Shown here: piece by piece, positions 7,168-48,045 of the stretch | Layout of the letters: the number at the start of each line of letters is the position of its first letter | Position numbering within the stretch: the stretch's first letter is position 1 | Notes under the pieces: model-generated | Told to the model about the DNA's origin: nothing | What the model saw: the letters and a program-made list of their open reading frames with translations, nothing else | Database searches by the model: none | IMG/VR virus record: IMGVR_UViG_3300020045_001019 | Location: 1 to 48,045 of that record | Origin: a virus | Taxonomy: Duplodnaviria; Caudoviricetes | DNA: 48,045 nucleotides | Direction: 5' to 3' (one strand) | Made by a program: the position numbers and the translations under genes

Positions 7168-7242
7168 AGGGGTGTGTTGTAATGGTAACATACAGGTCTC
7201 CAAAACCTTGAGATGAGAGTTCGAGTCTTTCCACCTTTGCCA
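7168..7242 (+). tRNA. tRNA-Trp (CCA)
   Basis: Acceptor stem AGGGGTG/CACCTTT, D loop AATGGTA, anticodon arm CAGGT-CTCCAAA-ACCTT (CCA at 7200-7202), T arm GAGAG-TTCGAGT-CTTTC, encoded 3' CCA. Confidence 0.92.
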
Positions 7243-32224: not shown

Positions 32225-34867
32225 TTAATGTGTTTCGTACCAGTTCTTACCAATTTCAGACTCCCCTGCATGAGGGCAAGTGATATTAAAATGCTCTCCT
32301 GCAGCTTTAATAGCCCACCTACAAACCTCCCCTACTTCTTCAGCTATTTCTTCACGACACTCTATCTGAATCTCATCGTGAACCCACCCTACAATGCCGA
32401 AATCAACACCCCAAGTAAATCGCTTACTTAACTCTGTGAATGTTAAACAATAAGCTTTCGACATGTGCAGGGCTTCATCTGATTGTAACAGATAAACGAG
32501 CAACTGATGCTCTGATGTAACCCTAATCGGTCTTCCATCTAAACCTGTTATGTACCCATCATAATACTCCATCTTATTAAACTTAGGATTGAATCTCTGC
32601 CTAGCTGTTTCTCTCCATTCTTTCGTTATTCGTTCAACAAGAGCACCAAGGCCGTCCAGCCCACGATACAGCTTACTTCGCAAATCAGCACCACTACCAA
32701 CAGGTTTCTTAGCAGTCTTTGCCAGTTTGACATCACCTCCTCCAAATAAGAGACAATTACCTGTGATTGTAATTGTATTACCTTGCCGGATAACGAAAGA
32801 CTCATTATCTGTAGACAGGCACCAAACTTTCTGTACAGGGTGTACCTCCTTTACCATCTTCATCATTGTCACGTGTGGTTTCTTGCTTATCTTAGAAGCA
32901 TGCATTGTTTTACCATTCTCCATAACACGTGAACTTGTATAGATATATCCAGAGGATTCAATAAAAGAAGCAGTGAGAGCAGCTTCAAACAACGGGCCAT
33001 CTAATTGAGCAAATTGCCAATTACCTTGTTCAATCCAATACCCATCTGCAATCAAGAAACCAGCTAAGAATCCTTTCCTCTCAGCAGAGCTTGCTTGACA
33101 CACTCTTTTCGTCCAGTTAGTAGCATATTTACTAGTATTCCATTCAAAAGCAGTAATACCATAGTCTTGTGACATGGGTGCATTTGTGATGATATTAGAC
33201 TCTTTATTTAATTCATCAGTTGTCCTGATTTGGTAGTCCATATATCTACCGTTAACTTTACCGTAAGAACTAGATGTAGGCATGAACCTCCTTTGTTTTA
33301 CAAACCATCTATGATCCCTTGTTGAGCGAATAGAGAAACCATGTCCGTGTTTCATTTCTATTACTTCATCATACTTCTCATGTAAAGCAAGGATTGGTTT
33401 CCATTCCTTCATCTGAGATTTCTGATTATATGTTAGAACCTGCTCACCTATAACTAAATCTGAATAGTGTTTCCACCCATCCCTTGTAAGGGCTTGTGTG
33501 TCCATTGGTACACAGTAAATGACATTCTTAGCCACATCCCTACTTTCAAGCTCACCAATATCTCTTGTAAGAGAGTGGTTATCTGTACCATCTTCTTTTC
33601 GTCCTTCAATAAGAGCCTTGGTGTATACAGGGCTCCCCATTCGTGCAGCTAACTGGCGAAGTTGATTCCCTGCTGAATCGGTTCCAACAAGTACAAAGCC
33701 TGGCTTACTGGTAAAGATGCTTCGCATTTGCTTTCCATAGAAGCTTCCTGCTTTTGGTATGTTGACGATGTTTCTATGAGTTGCTCTACCCGTGACTGCG
33801 AGAGTATTAACAACACTTGCAATTCTCCCATCTTCTCGAATAAGTCCAAATAAACCCTCAATAATTCCACGCCGTTGCCTACATTGGACTCGTCGTGCAA
33901 CAATGTGCCCAAGTTTGTCCTCAATTCCCTCAAAAGGGTCATCTTTCGATAATTTAGGACTTGTTCTGTTCCCTTTATCATCTGTGTTCCACTCAAGGGG
34001 CTCCCATCCAAGGGAGAGGAGGTAGTCTTTAGTTTCATATGAGGAGTTTAAATCCGTAGGTCGAAAGTTAATACGGCTAAAGCAACCCAAAACGGGCTTG
34101 TCGCTGCTGCCAAGGCCAACCCTAGAGCACCAATCAATAACGCTTTGGGAATAATTCCCACTTTTAAGGAAGGGTTTTCGGATGTAATTATATTCACCAT
34201 CTTTCTTAGTTTCTTCTATTTCTAGAATCTTAGGGAGTCTAGGGACAACAGCTCTGTCAATCAAACCAATCCACCTAGTGAGTTGTTTAACACAACTTTC
34301 CATGTGTTGTCTGTCAACAAGCCATCCGTATTCTTCTTGCTTCTGGAGATGTTCAAAGAGTTCAAACGTAAGAAGGAAAGCATTACGCCACTTACCACCT
34401 TTTGATTCTTTGAGAAGCTCTTCGTACACAAGTTCTAGAATCTCAGTATCTTCTGAACACCTATGCATCATATCTTCTGAGAAGTTCTCCCAGTCGTTAT
34501 GTTCTGGCTTACCTCGTCCTACACGATAACCCCAAGCTGCAATAGAATGAGGACCAATTCCTCTCTCTGGACAATCATATGGGACAAGACGCTTAGGATT
34601 TAACAACCTACTCATCAACAGAGTATCAACTTTCTTACCTTTGAATTCCCAATTATATAATTTCTTTAGGAGAGGAAAGTCATACCCAATTCCATTATGA
34701 GCAATAAGAACATCATAGGATTCTAGTTCTTCAAGAAGTTCTTTAATCTGATAAGGACGAAACTTCTTAATTACGCCAGATTTATATTCCTTTACAGCTC
34801 CACAATGTACTTTAGTAGCTTGTCGTAATAGTCCGTTTGCCTCAAGATCAAAGAGTCCAATTTTCAT
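32225..34867 (-). CDS. polA: Family A DNA polymerase with intein
   Basis: Exo I FDLEANGL, Exo II AHNGIGYD, motif A GTDSAGNQLR, motif B AKNVIY|CLLFG (split by the intein), motif C VHDEIQ. Confidence 0.95.
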   Translation of the reverse strand: MKIGLFDLEANGLLRQATKVHCGAVKEYKSGVIKKFRPYQIKELLEELESYDVLIAHNGIGYDFPLLKKLYNWEFKGKKVDTLLMSRLLNPKRLVPYDCPERGIGPHSIAAWGYRVGRGKPEHNDWENFSEDMMHRCSEDTEILELVYEELLKESKGGKWRNAFLLTFELFEHLQKQEEYGWLVDRQHMESCVKQLTRWIGLIDRAVVPRLPKILEIEETKKDGEYNYIRKPFLKSGNYSQSVIDWCSRVGLGSSDKPVLGCFSRINFRPTDLNSSYETKDYLLSLGWEPLEWNTDDKGNRTSPKLSKDDPFEGIEDKLGHIVARRVQCRQRRGIIEGLFGLIREDGRIASVVNTLAVTGRATHRNIVNIPKAGSFYGKQMRSIFTSKPGFVLVGTDSAGNQLRQLAARMGSPVYTKALIEGRKEDGTDNHSLTRDIGELESRDVAKNVIYCVPMDTQALTRDGWKHYSDLVIGEQVLTYNQKSQMKEWKPILALHEKYDEVIEMKHGHGFSIRSTRDHRWFVKQRRFMPTSSSYGKVNGRYMDYQIRTTDELNKESNIITNAPMSQDYGITAFEWNTSKYATNWTKRVCQASSAERKGFLAGFLIADGYWIEQGNWQFAQLDGPLFEAALTASFIESSGYIYTSSRVMENGKTMHASKISKKPHVTMMKMVKEVHPVQKVWCLSTDNESFVIRQGNTITITGNCLLFGGGDVKLAKTAKKPVGSGADLRSKLYRGLDGLGALVERITKEWRETARQRFNPKFNKMEYYDGYITGLDGRPIRVTSEHQLLVYLLQSDEALHMSKAYCLTFTELSKRFTWGVDFGIVGWVHDEIQIECREEIAEEVGEVCRWAIKAAGEHFNITCPHAGESEIGKNWYETH
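32756..33514 (-). mobile_element. Intein (253 aa, residues 452-704) in polymerase motif B
   Basis: Starts CVPMDTQALT; block B STRDHRWFV; LAGLIDADG-like FLAGFLIADG; block F VWCLST; ends ITGN followed by Cys+1. Confidence 0.92.
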
Positions 34868-35334
34868 GAGTATAGTTCTTTTAGTTCATTCTTAAATCGT
34901 TGAATAATTTGATGAGCCTTAGCATAAGAGCAATCAATTTGCCTACTAATATCAATAGCTGAATATCCTTGCTTCAGATGCAACATCAACACTTCAATTT
35001 GAATCTCACTCTTAGTATCAATTAACTCATAGATTTCTCTAATGACATGATTGGGATAGGAAGAACACTCGATAGTTCCTTCATTCTCATCCTCTTCCAT
35101 GTGAACATAACCCTTTTCAGAGTTCTTATAGTCACGAAGAGAGTTGTTTAGAAGCATAGAAAACCATTGATCAAAGCGAGTAGGGTCACAGCTTCGGTGG
35201 TAACGAAGGGCTCTCTCATATGCTGTTTGTACAACATCCTCACCAGCTTCAAGAGTTCCAGCTCGAAACCTCATCTTCTTTACAAACCTAGAGAAGTTCT
35301 TCTCATAGTGCTTAGCTATGTCAGGGACTTGCAT
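34864..35334 (-). CDS. Sigma-70-family (ECF-like) RNA polymerase sigma factor
   Basis: Region 2-like AGEDVVQTAYERAL...FDQWFSMLLNNSLRDY; region 4 HTH QGYSAIDISRQI. Start may extend to 35349. Confidence 0.82.
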   Translation of the reverse strand: MQVPDIAKHYEKNFSRFVKKMRFRAGTLEAGEDVVQTAYERALRYHRSCDPTRFDQWFSMLLNNSLRDYKNSEKGYVHMEEDENEGTIECSSYPNHVIREIYELIDTKSEIQIEVLMLHLKQGYSAIDISRQIDCSYAKAHQIIQRFKNELKELYS

Positions 35335-35375
35335 TACCCTTCCTTTCATGTGTTCTCGACACTTTATTATAAAAT

Positions 35376-35870
35376 TTACTGATGTCTTGTATAATCACCG
35401 TGGTACTTTATACGGGCTTCTTTCATGACTTTTTCAGCTTCCTCTTGTGTTTTGTAACACCCAAGGTACTTTCTTCCTTCGTTAGTGTGTATTCGACAAA
35501 CCCATTGACCACCTGATTTGTTCCGGTAGTTGACGCCTTTAATACCAGAACGATTGTCAGACCTGATTTTTGAGTTACGTGTATTTTCACTATGCGTTGC
35601 AAGCCGTAAGTTAACTCTTCTATTGTCATCTCTGATCCCGTTTACGTGATCTACTATTTCGTTAGGATAAACACCATCTGTATATAGAAGAGCTAGCTTG
35701 TGCAGTTTATAACTTTTCCTGTCAAGAAATACGGTTAAATATCCGGTATGGTGTTTAGAACCAATCACTGATCCGATTTTTACACGATTAGCTGCTTTAG
35801 CTTTCCATATAAAAATCCCTGTATTTTCGTCATAGTTAACGAGTTCTTTCAGTCTGTCTTGAGTAATCAT
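35376..35870 (-). CDS. HNH-AP2 homing endonuclease
   Basis: TQDRLKELVNYDENTGIFIW; VDHVNGIRDDNRRVNLRLAT; AP2 domain SGIKGV...YLGCY. ATG at 35870 after AAGGA. Confidence 0.9.
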   Translation of the reverse strand: MITQDRLKELVNYDENTGIFIWKAKAANRVKIGSVIGSKHHTGYLTVFLDRKSYKLHKLALLYTDGVYPNEIVDHVNGIRDDNRRVNLRLATHSENTRNSKIRSDNRSGIKGVNYRNKSGGQWVCRIHTNEGRKYLGCYKTQEEAEKVMKEARIKYHGDYTRHQ

Positions 35871-35886
35871 AATATCCTTAAACATT

Positions 35887-35916
35887 ACTATACTCTCCAG
35901 GAAGGCAATACTCGAC
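35887..35916 (-). promoter_or_regulatory. Putative late promoter GTCGAG-N18-TATAGT
   Basis: Exact motif between the primase stop and the HNH-AP2 start. Confidence 0.7.
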
Positions 35917-35917
35917 A

Positions 35918-37582
35918 CTAATGGTTGATTTCTTGGAAAAGACCTGTATTATTATCCCAGTACAGTTTGAAACGACCATTCTCGCCGAAATTTCTGTCTT
36001 CCAAAATTACAATCTGCCTCATATTCCGCTCTTCAGCGGGTAGATTAGGATCACGATTACCCTCAAGTCCAAGAAGAAGGTGACACGAGCGAGCCATAGC
36101 CCTACTCCCAGCCATTTGATTGCTTAGAACGTGACCCCCTAGTTCATGAGGTATACCTGATTCAGGATTTCTAACGTGACAAGTTAAGAACATTACAATG
36201 TTAAGATCGAGAGCTAGAGCAGCGGCTTCCTGTGCTATTTTTTGTAGAAGCACATTAGCATCCGCAGCGGACATTCCATTTGAATAATTAGTTAATGGGT
36301 CAAGGAATACAGCTTTTACCCCCTCTGCTACAGCAGCTCGTATATCTGTTTTTGTAGTCTCCCAATCAACTGCTTGGTACAAATTCAATAGAATGAGGTT
36401 ATCTTGTATGATAGCACCAGCTTCTTCAAACGAATCCTCATCAAACTCTTTATTAGGATCGTGGAAAAACTTACCCACAAGCTTACCCGCAACCATTTTA
36501 TAAGTTCTTTTGTTCTCCTCCTCAGGCTTAATAAGGAACACGTTCCAACCATGTTCTTTAATAAAATGAGCAGCAAGTGTATTGACTACATCCGACTTAC
36601 CCATTTTCTGAGGAGCACCTAAATAGATTGTCTCCCCAAACCTAATACCACGTGTTGCTTTGGTTAGATGCGACCAAGGCCAACTAAATCCCATCTTAGG
36701 GCGTTCTTTAGCAGCTTCGTGTAAGGAAGAGGCATAAATCAGACGAGTATTCTTAGGTTTCTGGGCATTAAACTGGCAAGCATTATACGTAGCAATACTA
36801 CGCCCATCAATTAATGCTTGGTTAGCATCCTTAGATGGAATAGAAGCTACTAAAGCATCTGGAAGAATCTTTAATACTTCTTCTACAGCTTTCTTACCCG
36901 CCTCATCATTATCAAATACTAGAACGACTTCCTTAAACTGTTTTCTAATTTCAGGAAGCATCCTAGAGATTTGCTTAGCTGCTCCTGCTGACCCGTTGGA
37001 GATAGATACAATAGCTGGATTTAGGTCAGCATATTGTGTAGATTTATTCTTATCTTTAAAGATTTGAAACAAGGCTACACAATCCTCTTCACCTTCAACA
37101 CAAAACAGCTTCTTACCGCCTGCTAAGATGGCTTGATTCCACCCAAAGAAATCAGACTCCTTGGTTGAACCAATAGCCCACATCTTCTTTTCATCAATAA
37201 GTTTGACCTTATAACCGATAAGCTTACCGTTTTTGTAATATGGGAAATAGCAACTACGGGGTGTTACGCCATCAGTCTCCGACATGCCTATCTTAATACC
37301 AAAATACTCTAGTGTTTCTTTCCTAAGCTTTCGTTTAGGAAGGTCAACAGTTTGATATTCTTTTACTTCGTCTAGCTCTGCTTGGATTTCTTCATCAGAC
37401 TTAATAGATACTTTAGGCTTATATCCTTCAGGCTTATCTCCATAGGGAGATTCTACTCGTGTTCCACATTTAAAACAGTAGCCTGTGTATCTCCCATCAG
37501 CTTCAAGGAACACTTGTAAGCCGTCTGAGCTATTACACTTATCTGTCCTGTGTGGTAGTTTCTCAATACATTTAGAACTCAC
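35918..37582 (-). CDS. DNA primase-helicase (T7 gp4-like)
   Basis: N-terminal Zn finger (C...YCFKC), TOPRIM VEGEED and FDNDEAG, Walker A GAPQKMGKS, VFLDPL. Confidence 0.93.
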   Translation of the reverse strand: MSSKCIEKLPHRTDKCNSSDGLQVFLEADGRYTGYCFKCGTRVESPYGDKPEGYKPKVSIKSDEEIQAELDEVKEYQTVDLPKRKLRKETLEYFGIKIGMSETDGVTPRSCYFPYYKNGKLIGYKVKLIDEKKMWAIGSTKESDFFGWNQAILAGGKKLFCVEGEEDCVALFQIFKDKNKSTQYADLNPAIVSISNGSAGAAKQISRMLPEIRKQFKEVVLVFDNDEAGKKAVEEVLKILPDALVASIPSKDANQALIDGRSIATYNACQFNAQKPKNTRLIYASSLHEAAKERPKMGFSWPWSHLTKATRGIRFGETIYLGAPQKMGKSDVVNTLAAHFIKEHGWNVFLIKPEEENKRTYKMVAGKLVGKFFHDPNKEFDEDSFEEAGAIIQDNLILLNLYQAVDWETTKTDIRAAVAEGVKAVFLDPLTNYSNGMSAADANVLLQKIAQEAAALALDLNIVMFLTCHVRNPESGIPHELGGHVLSNQMAGSRAMARSCHLLLGLEGNRDPNLPAEERNMRQIVILEDRNFGENGRFKLYWDNNTGLFQEINH

Positions 37583-37976: not shown

Positions 37977-38582
37977 TCAACATAGGCTACGAGGGTAGCC
38001 CCAGCTAGGACTGTCATTCTTGATCCTTTTTAGTACGTATTTAGAAAAAGAAATAAGTTCCTCCATCGATGCATTACTTTTCATTGTATTAGCTTTACGA
38101 GATATAATTTGTACATTATCTTTTGTATAACCTTTTAAAGGATCAATTCGATCTATTGATGCATTTGTTGGCAATTGACCTTGACCTAGTGTATAAGTCA
38201 ATTTCAATCCGAGATAAGGGCAATGGGTTGGAAAGACAATATCTTCTGCGGATAAATTGAAATCCCATCCACATTCCTCTGCACGATACCTAGCCCTTGT
38301 TAGCATCTTTTTTACCCAGTTTTCGGGACGAGAGTAGTAAGCTTCAGTGTGGGCTTTTTGATTATTTTTAAACTTAGCATATCGAGTAAGATTTCTGCCA
38401 CGCATTATTTCAATGTTATTGTGATAATACTCTTTTTTCTGCGCGAGAATTGCTTCTTTATTATCCTCTCTCCACTTCTTAGTGCAAGACCTACAATGAT
38501 AAGCTCGACCATCTTTGTTACGAGATAATTTAGAGAACATTTCGTACTCTTTTTCTATTTTACAGCAAGTGCATGTTTTCAT
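37977..38582 (-). CDS. Zn-finger HNH-type homing endonuclease
   Basis: KTCTCC...CRSC; CPYLG...SIDRIDPLKGYTKDNVQIISRKANTMK. Confidence 0.85.
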   Translation of the reverse strand: MKTCTCCKIEKEYEMFSKLSRNKDGRAYHCRSCTKKWREDNKEAILAQKKEYYHNNIEIMRGRNLTRYAKFKNNQKAHTEAYYSRPENWVKKMLTRARYRAEECGWDFNLSAEDIVFPTHCPYLGLKLTYTLGQGQLPTNASIDRIDPLKGYTKDNVQIISRKANTMKSNASMEELISFSKYVLKRIKNDSPSWGYPRSLC

Positions 38583-43523: not shown

Positions 43524-43997
43524 TCAGCAGTTACCAAGAAATCTACTTGTTATCCTGCAATATTTACCAATTAAAATATCACTAACCCTACGCGAGTCAA
43601 TTCCCACAAGGATTGCAATCTCTTTATTTGAAAGCTTATTTGTAGATTTTAATTCTATAACTCTGTGAATCTTATCAAGAGTTATAATCTTAAATGTTCT
43701 ACCTCTTTCATCTCTATCTCTAGCGTTATCGGCTGGTGTACCTTTCAATAGGTGTAAAGGATTGATACATTTTATATTGTCACAAGTGTGTCTAACAACA
43801 CATCCTGAAATATCTTCTTTATTATAAAGCTCAAAAACTAACCTATGTACTTTAACGTTACCACCCATTCGGGGATATCCATCTGTATTAAAGCACCTAA
43901 TCCATTCCATACATTCAACATTAAGTGATGTATTAGAAAGTAAATCTTTGAGCTTATCTTCTTGTGTCAGTGATGTGTTTTGAATGATTTGTTTCAT
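43524..43997 (-). CDS. HNH homing endonuclease
   Basis: ECMEW...KVHRLVF...VRHTCDNIKCINPLHL...NARD, plus a C-terminal HTH-like tail. Confidence 0.88.
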   Translation of the reverse strand: MKQIIQNTSLTQEDKLKDLLSNTSLNVECMEWIRCFNTDGYPRMGGNVKVHRLVFELYNKEDISGCVVRHTCDNIKCINPLHLLKGTPADNARDRDERGRTFKIITLDKIHRVIELKSTNKLSNKEIAILVGIDSRRVSDILIGKYCRITSRFLGNC

Positions 43998-44028
43998 GTT
44001 TATATGTGTGGTTGGTTGTGTCACACAT

Positions 44029-46141: not shown

Positions 46142-46204
46142 GTAAATTCTCCTAAAACAGTCGAGAAACAGCAAAATTTGGGGTAGTACACGTACCCCCG
46201 TTAC

Positions 46205-46664: not shown

Positions 46665-46708
46665 AACAAAAGCCCTACAGTGTAAAAGCTGTAGGGCTAT
46701 TTTTATTT
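46665..46708. terminator. Intergenic hairpin (terminator or processing site)
   Basis: Perfect 10-bp stem AGCCCTACAG/CTGTAGGGCT with T-rich runs on both strands. Confidence 0.65.
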
Positions 46709-47490: not shown

Positions 47491-47770
47491 AATATATTCT
47501 CCAGTTGATTAATAGGCCGGTTTGTGTTAGAAAACACATTATAGCAGACTGTCACTCTGCTACCGTTTGTTATCTACGTTCGCTAGAGACTTAATTCTAG
47601 CATAGATTAAAACAACCATAAGCCTTGACACGATGGCAAGTCTAGCGGGTAAGCATAACAATAGGGATAGGAAACAATCAATAAGAACTAGCATCCTAGT
47701 GAATCTGCTATCATGTTTCATATGGGACATTGTCATTGGCTGTCGCTTGTCTAGGTTTATGGGTATAAAT

Positions 47771-47782
47771 TGTTAATGAACT
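47771..47782 (-). promoter_or_regulatory. boxA-like element 2 (AGTTCATTAACA)
   Basis: Shares GTTC(T/A)TTAACAATT with element 1; sits in the linker between the two structured domains. Confidence 0.5.
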
Positions 47783-48013
47783 ACTAATTAATGGCTGTAA
47801 TTACACATCCAACATAGCCGGATGTGGTCTGACGGACTATTGAAACACTGTATGTAAACCCATGTTGATCTCTTCCCTGTTACTATCGGAGGATGTGAAC
47901 TGCCAGCCTAGGATGCTAGGGCGTGACAATCCATACCACGACACAAATAGTCTTTGGTACTAAAGGAACAACATGGCATACGTGAACAACTTCACGTCTA
48001 ACCATTAATCAAT

Positions 48014-48025
48014 TGTTAAAGAACA
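48014..48025 (-). promoter_or_regulatory. boxA-like antitermination element 1 (TGTTCTTTAACA)
   Basis: 11/12 match to the rrn boxA TGCTCTTTAACA. Confidence 0.65.
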
Positions 48026-48045
48026 TAGGTGCTAATTCACGATGG

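Follow-up and report, generated by a model that had tools for sequence, protein, structure and literature searches.

The packaging RNA (pRNA) of phage phi29 is transcribed from an early promoter near the genome end and makes loop-loop contacts, and the put RNA of phage HK022 acts independently of protein factors. T7-type RNase III sites are formed by a stem that extends through an internal loop. Among larger RNAs, ROOL and GOLLD are phage-encoded, have long-range covarying helices, kissing loops and many pseudoknots, often lie beside tRNA islands and assemble into homo-oligomeric nanocages (PMC12286853). The leader of bacterial rrn operons has the order boxB-boxA-boxC, is served by Nus factors, SuhB and S4 and is associated with RNase III stems. 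According to PMC8632103, where the EAR RNA of Bacillus is also named, a Rho-resistant Nus/SuhB complex is nucleated on rrn boxA, and this complex keeps the 5' end of the transcript and delivers it to its distant complement, thereby bridging the 5' and 3' halves of the helix. The complex also raises RNase III processing (bioRxiv 2026.03.17.712431). Assemblies of short RNAs (bioRxiv 2026.07.01.735769) and the long RNAs of Herelleviridae (PMC10383478) are analogues only.

The DNA analyzed in the present study (hereafter the window) is a whole IMG/VR virus record of 48,045 nt, a contig from a Zobellviridae-like podophage whose right end cuts inside the early leader. The 40 ORFs scanned include a large terminase, a head protein, a primase/helicase, a DNA polymerase, a sigma factor and an amidoligase cluster. 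The terminase, which falls into PHROG 38, is 60-70% identical to those of CW02, PA11, O4 and VPMCC5 (Zobellviridae), and the window was placed with this family on the basis of the gene set and terminase identity. Late genes occupy the plus strand and early and middle genes the minus strand, from 47490 downward; the stretch of interest (47520-48025) is directly upstream of the first early ORF. It had been thought to lie at the early genome end. The right end turned out to be a contig break with no genome end shown, and a close relative, L001 (anchor protein 96% identical), runs approximately 500 nt beyond it; judging from this alignment, the element starts upstream of the window. The upstream part of L001 has an extended -10 promoter at 396-404 (assigned by eye and absent from the promoter scan list), then another segment that folds (z = -2.58) and, right before the first boxA, a hairpin. 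By eye, positions ~1-118 of L001 are an inverted copy of 396-511, the segment just after the promoter, explicable by a terminal inverted repeat or by misassembly. The left end of the window apparently falls inside an endolysin gene and also looks like a contig break. Elsewhere in the window, a tRNA-Trp(CCA) gene (7168-7242) separates the head-tail adaptor region from the head gene that follows, and the middle arm carries one sigma-factor gene and three HNH/endonuclease genes (at 34864-35349, 35376-35918, 37977-38582 and 43524-44024).

The 506 nt of the minus strand fold at -148.8 kcal/mol (z = -5.63), better than all 100 shuffled controls, and the plus strand of the same stretch gave a z of -3.04. 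The stretch contains no ORF of at least 60 aa, and a coding explanation was dropped because the longest was 58 aa. The RNA had been regarded as not assignable to a known family, and this held in the Rfam search, which gave no match at the gathering threshold and none within 47500-48045 up to an E value of 10; over 40 related loci, tRNAs alone matched. The full-text literature searched, which lacks most subscription papers, yielded no account of this RNA and none of boxA in Zobellviridae. Lists of candidate motifs outside Rfam, such as that in PMC8040213, could include it. As far as sequence comparison goes, the element represents a class of large phage RNA absent from the catalogues, in which a single inter-domain kiss with strong covariation is set in an rRNA-operon-like frame (Table 1). 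It is a conserved, gene-free cassette in the style of an rRNA operon. The stand-alone RNA that it likely makes would be protected and folded by host Nus factors and then probably set free to serve as scaffold or decoy early in infection; we hold this explanation with about even confidence.

Table 1. Positions in the window of the leader RNA elements and adjacent downstream features.
Feature	Position	Strand	Remarks
Putative boxB-like hairpin remnant (loop and 3' arm)	48026..48045	minus	Cut by the contig end; from the alignment to L001
boxA1, exact GYTCTTTAANA	48014..48024	minus	The window has just one other exact match, both strands counted
Domain 1, closed by P1 (48000-48013 with 47783-47796)	47783..48013	minus	Predicted three-way junction, long irregular arm
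Short junction helix P2 (47995-47998 with 47831-47834)	47831..47998	minus	Assigned by eye; 4/4 pairs kept in L001
Helix 47969-47976 with 47860-47867	47860..47976	minus	Nested in the domain 1 arm
Asymmetric internal loop, GUGUCGUG (47937-47944) opposite CCUCC (47888-47892)	47888..47944	minus	Conserved; anchors of alignment A3
Domain 1 apical hairpin	47907..47920	minus	Kissing hexamer GCAUCC at 47911-47916
Hairpin P5 (47804-47826) and junction strand UAAUUACA (47796-47803)	47796..47826	minus	Junction strand conserved
boxA2, one mismatch	47771..47781	minus	A in place of U at position 6 of boxA
Domain 2, long irregular rod	47616..47762	minus	Closed by 47748-47762 with 47616-47630
UCCC bulge of domain 2	47724-47727	minus	By eye; CCC bulge in other loci, by eye
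Domain 2 apical hairpin	47687..47700	minus	Kissing hexamer GGAUGC at 47691-47696
Small hairpin after domain 2	47582..47601	minus	5/6 pairs kept in L001
GUGACAG-capped hairpin	47529..47575	minus	Upper stem of 8 bp above a 4x4 internal loop and a lower stem; loop at 47549-47555
First early ORF, 186 aa	46930..47490	minus	Anchor for the homologue search
Intrinsic-terminator-like hairpin	46671..46698	minus	Two genes downstream; counterpart in L001

A blastn search with the element against 50,697 phage records returned no match; homologues were therefore sought through the 186-aa anchor ORF, whose protein matched no known family, together with motifs. At least 25 divergent contigs share the layout boxA, domain 1, boxA, domain 2, with or without the GUGACAG hairpin, and the predicted conserved, two-domain, structured non-coding element of approximately 500 nt is thus borne out across homologous contigs. 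The median identity of domain 1 among loci is 54% (80% between the window and L001), and a search for exact 20-nt patterns found the L001 contig only. A model (R1) was built on alignment A3 of 14 loci; it scores sequence only since RNAalifold returned no pairs on A3. R1 found seven non-training loci at an E value of 1e-5 or better (L043, which resembles the training locus L042, and L033, L030, L024, L118, L026 and L023) and also L179. In phiEco32, which has four boxA sites, it found boxA stubs only, and it had no match in stretches from O4, ICP2, CVT22, GP100, VpV262 and MEP401, the last being a stretch without the leader. In a pattern scan of 119 loci, 19 passed a loose boxA filter, and 5 of these were judged to be new members and 5 to be repeat contigs; a second scan of 53 loci added three contigs (L196, L205 and L214), the rest being repeats or lacking boxA2 (8 examined), and matches from pattern scans were mostly due to chance. 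L004 (anchor failed) and L097, L016 and L048 (truncated or near-duplicate) were left out before counting. The covariation support for domains 1 and 2 given below consists of swap tests comparing cognate with swapped partners, which differ from an R-scape-type statistic.

The most telling feature of the element, which the original prediction overlooked, is a boxA at the head of each domain, matching the rrn-type consensus GYTCTTTAANA (PMC5725501). In 25 loci that were chosen by eye, as were the boxA positions, boxA1 was exact in 15 and had at most one mismatch in 23, while the corresponding counts for boxA2 were 5 and 21; the boxA-like sites are 206-321 nt apart and domain 1 is 205-320 nt long. 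In an unselected set of 39 loci, the 71,594 nt lying upstream of the anchor ORF held 42 exact boxA sites, versus one in 310,480 nt elsewhere. The junction word YAATTRCA followed by boxA with at most one mismatch was found in 13/27 cases upstream versus 0/42 elsewhere. Regarding the features of an rrn nut site, the boxA consensus is present, a complete 8-bp hairpin precedes boxA1 in L001 (522-543), and a long-range closing helix has its 5' strand directly after each boxA, with weaker support in domain 2. This arrangement, repeated twice in series, resembles the rrn leader and the 16S-23S spacer. In contrast to an rrn operon, the cargo is a fold of 150-300 nt and not rRNA, the closing helices are 7-18 bp, and the ORFs scanned in this podophage include no integrase. 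A comparable layout was noted in Pseudomonas phage O4 (L171 3830-4390, minus strand; ~49.3-49.9 kb), in which a boxA-like site, a 24-bp stem, an exact boxA and a 26-bp stem follow one another, the first stem enclosing ORF O4_76 and the second ORF O4_75. The cassette is therefore separable from its cargo, and by analogy the O4 layout would fit a cassette for delivery and processing.

Several boxA copies per leader, with boxA2 in an unpaired linker between two stable domains in the predicted fold, are also what would be expected of an abundant, stable RNA that draws NusB/NusE off host rRNA operons and slows ribosome synthesis. We consider such a sponge improbable: it leaves the covarying kiss, the junction strand and the internal-loop motifs unexplained, boxA2 is often off consensus, and a stable complex needs both the polymerase and boxBAC according to bioRxiv 2026.03.17.712431. 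The boxA2 of the window has a transversion at position 6, and transversions there are reported not to be tolerated in the E. coli/lambda system (PMC3177189). The same variant heads the 16S leaders of 7 operons in 3 of 401 genomes of one phylum, a count of this form alone. The 16S starts of these three genomes look betaproteobacterial, which gives a weak hint at the phage host.

All helices checked from the original prediction were present at their predicted positions on the minus strand. In domain 1, the 11-bp helix 48000-48010/47786-47796 within P1 has 11/11 pairs in the window and keeps 10/11 in L001. P1 is 7-14 bp long among loci, and for its 5' strand the cognate 3' strand was the best partner in 20 of 25 loci (-14.7 versus -6.0 kcal/mol). 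On its 5' side P1 is typically followed by GAR, and on its 3' side it typically stops after UAAUURCA, a word that P5 immediately precedes. P5 itself has 10/10 pairs in the window and two compensatory changes in L001, and the predicted hairpin at 47981-47996 has 6/6 pairs in the window. Together with the short P2, P1 and P5 give a predicted three-way junction; an automated search for P2 over the homologues was unclean, with ambiguous recovery. GUGUCGYG lies opposite CUCC in the minimum free energy (MFE) structures of 12 of the 16 loci carrying GUCG, and not in the window's own. The median z of domain 1 is -2.9 (21 loci, 25 shuffles each), and the sense strand folds better in 18 of the 21. The junction strand may resemble loop B of the hairpin ribozyme or the UAA/GAN motif, and CCUCC may resemble an anti-Shine-Dalgarno sequence; neither likeness enters the interpretation given here.

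The closing helix of domain 2 has 13 of 15 pairs both in the window, as predicted, and in L001. It is less specific than P1, its own partner being the best in 8 of 24 loci, and domain 2 has a median z of -2.7 (21 loci, 25 shuffles each), with the sense strand folding better in 10/21 only. The small hairpin that follows has 6/6 pairs in the window, as described. The word GCTATCAY, found at 47707-47714 of the window and, in either orientation, in domain 2 of most loci, recurs through early regions; it showed no enrichment upstream (34 in 71.6 kb) versus downstream (59 in 109.8 kb) of the anchor ORF and is possibly a DNA-level site.

The apical hairpins CCUAG-CAUC-CUAGG and ACUAG-GAUG-CUAGU were confirmed, with 5/5 pairs in each stem and 4/4 complementary loop positions. 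The complementarity of the loops stood, CAUC/GAUG being replaced by the compensatory CAUA/UAUG in L001; the size of 4 bp did not, since the real kiss is 6-7 bp. When position was unrestricted, the MFE loops of domains 1 and 2 shared at least 6 Watson-Crick pairs in 12 of 29 cognate combinations versus 27 of 812 swapped ones, and none of 20,000 permutations reached 12 cognate kisses. Ten of these 12 were at the homologous position. In a second test at this position, the windows for which were set after the unrestricted test, at least 6 bp were found in 23/25 cognate versus 119/600 swapped pairs; thus, the proposed covariation of CAUC/GAUG was observed in homologues, with failures in L033 and L041. 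The loci new to this test (L030, L179, L196, L205 and L214) passed in 5/5 cases, and members found from the 5' half of domain 1 alone had boxA2 and the kiss as predicted. The loop words are highly variable and may trade places between the domains: the window has GCAUCC/GGAUGC, L023 the same pair reversed, L021 GUAGUC/GACUAC and L205 GCCUUGU/ACAAGGC. Loop positions are fixed at +95 to 111 in domain 1 and +80 to 103 in domain 2. In the first test, a kiss of 6 bp at the homologous position was absent from L002, L003, L005, L006, L009, L012 and L014 (marine and enterobacterial Zobellviridae) and from L032 and L109; these loci and the truncated L097 were left out of the 23/25 test, and the junction is present in L002, L005 and L006 although they have no kiss.

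The two apical hairpins are also full 12-bp reverse complements in the window and L001, and over 11 bp in L023 and L026, which would allow the supposed kiss to be a long-range duplex switch in folds that only stabilize or process early mRNA through 5' protection and RNase III punctuation. The plain closing stems around ORFs in O4 are in keeping with this view. Across ten loci, however, outer pairs are kept in 53/60 cases for the hairpin stems versus 40/60 for the extended duplex, which fails in L018 (2/6), L020 (1/6) and L036 (3/6) while both hairpins and the 6-bp core hold; loop positions are, moreover, fixed in both domains, and we regard this alternative as quite doubtful. Since the hairpin stems hold better than the duplex across loci, the contact is read from these alignments as a loop-loop helix of 6-7 bp that includes the closing G-C pair and may be intra- or intermolecular alike. 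Overall, two boxA sites, closing helices, a junction strand and a covarying kiss of 6-7 bp are shown by comparison of the loci.

The two other crossings proposed for this RNA did not survive comparison with L001. The pseudoknot GACUAUU/AAUAGUC (47946-47952/47835-47841) has 7/7 pairs in the window, and two of them are broken in this closest homologue with none compensatory; a nested alternative, 47947-47951 with 47882-47886, is kept there with one compensatory change. The inter-domain pairing AUUGUCA/UGACAAU (47924-47930/47729-47735), also 7/7 in the window, has three pairs broken in L001 without compensation. The CCAUGUUG/CAACAUGG helix, which the former was said to cross, was upheld as a helix (8/8 pairs in the window; two compensatory changes and one broken pair in L001) and not in its pseudoknot role, as it is nested. 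The term multi-pseudoknot is therefore justified for one crossing, the loop-loop contact, and not for three.

These results bring the RNA close to ROOL and GOLLD as a large phage-encoded RNA with long-range covarying helices and kissing loops. It differs from them in that the window and the 40 loci gave no match to their Rfam models, one crossing is supported along with paired boxA sites, and the window holds a single tRNA-Trp (7168-7242); tRNAs occur in 8 of the 40 related loci and none lies inside the leader RNA. The RNA also appears to form a family distinct from that of phiEco32, where R1 matched the boxA stub only; here, a boxA heads each of two kissing domains. With its two domains, three-way junction and complementary loops, it likewise recalls the early pRNA of phi29, and the early promoter near the genome end is a further shared feature. 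A packaging RNA that forms a portal ring through intermolecular loop pairing would be permitted by the non-palindromic complementary loops, which allow head-to-tail oligomers. It nevertheless seems highly improbable: there was no Rfam match, the terminase is of the Zobellviridae type and not a phi29-type ATPase, so that the packaging motor differs, and the loops are in separate domains. The RNA is also patchily spread among phages with similar terminases, those of O4, ICP2, CVT22 and GP100 being 61-67% identical with no domain 1 match.

On the 3' side, the predicted hairpin at 47543-47561 was found as an 8-bp stem forming the upper part of the GUGACAG hairpin. Within 500 nt upstream of the anchor ORF, GTGACAG is in a stem of at least 7 bp in 9/11 cases, versus 0/13 elsewhere. 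In nine loci and the window, rows picked for having the stem, 70/70 cells are paired and 7/7 pairs are compensatory. The hairpin is present in a minority of loci and usually extends through an internal loop; on structural grounds, it is a candidate 3' processing or protein-binding site, and its putative RNase III role is suggested by shape alone. Its loop may resemble an anticodon or T-loop, a likeness on which no reading here relies. An intrinsic terminator at 47541-47563 was rejected since the tail is not U-rich in L001. No conserved terminator was found among the loci at the 3' end of the RNA, which is therefore continuous with the early mRNA.

Two functions had been offered for the element, a stand-alone RNA and an antiterminator leader, and comparison of the loci suggests that the first fits somewhat better. 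As a cis-acting processive antiterminator, boxA and the docked fold would modify the polymerase for read-through over the early/middle arm of ~23 kb, in the manner of put and EAR, likewise structured RNAs between an early promoter and terminator-like sites. The position at the head of the early arm, the sigma factor being found with no match to an RNA polymerase core subunit among the 40 window ORFs scanned, the terminator-like hairpins downstream (46671-46698 and 46180-46198) and a kiss that can form only after domain 2 has been transcribed are in its favor. However, put and EAR are far shorter, the present RNA being about five times longer, carrying boxA and having no Rfam match. Furthermore, O4, ICP2, VpV262, CVT22, GP100 and phiEco32 share promoter-boxA arrays with no match to the domain 1 model, from which it follows that early expression does not need this fold. 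The spacing from the RNA to the anchor ORF varies from ~290 to 1300 nt among loci, and in L036, L046 and L048 a consensus-like promoter lies between domain 2 and the anchor ORF, with other genes intervening. The RNA is thus not tied to a single gene, and a stand-alone product is favored; the antiterminator is rather unlikely in our assessment.

In the favored explanation, that of a guarded and released stand-alone RNA, host sigma70 RNA polymerase would start at the early promoter ~140 nt upstream of boxA1, outside the window, and NusB/NusE on boxA1 would build the rRNA antitermination complex and shield the untranslated RNA from Rho. The complex would hold the 5' strand until its P1 partner emerges ~230 nt later, and boxA2 would do likewise for domain 2. 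The two rods would then dock via the kiss, either intramolecularly or from one molecule to the next in head-to-tail fashion, and the GUGACAG hairpin, whose shape recalls phage RNase III sites, would serve to detach the RNA from the early mRNA. Once freed, the RNA may work in trans as a particle, either compact or oligomeric. Several observations count against this sequence of events: boxA2 is exact in 5/25 loci only and has the position-6 transversion in the window, the closing helix of domain 2 is less specific, the GUGACAG hairpin is in a minority of loci, and there is no conserved terminator. P1, with its 7-14 bp, is also shorter than is usual at RNase III sites. In an extension of this explanation, which is unlikely on present evidence, a miniature rRNA operon would load the host machine twice to fold two RNA subunits, and these would assemble through a co-evolving code of loops into a ring, filament or cage made of RNA only that acts as infection begins. 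If the extension is true, this would be the first non-ribosomal structural RNA shown to be built by the rRNA antitermination and chaperone complex. With the element, the large phage RNAs gain a further class that is well supported, not yet catalogued and endowed with a swappable tertiary contact. The element also provides a natural test of whether that complex chaperones non-rRNA, in which boxA, the closing helix and the kiss may be mutated separately; phage O4 offers a cultured system with the same layout around ordinary genes.

Other early leaders were encountered during the survey. A different gene-poor leader of ~1.2-1.5 kb, which contains conserved blocks but neither a visible boxA nor any match to Rfam, is present in L007 (2050-3460), L010 (940-2450) and L015 (800-2410), which belong to the Vibrio phages VPMCC5 and 464E53-1 and an oyster phage; it is possibly another large RNA. 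The word GATAAA(G/C)ACGTTAAAAC after an early promoter is conserved in five phages (L002 2590-2610, L004 715-735, L005 2765-2785, L009 1675-1695 and L016 455-475). The Pseudomonas phages O4 (L171) and GP100 (L174) have in common an extra gene-free segment of ~400 nt with conserved blocks before the first long early ORF.
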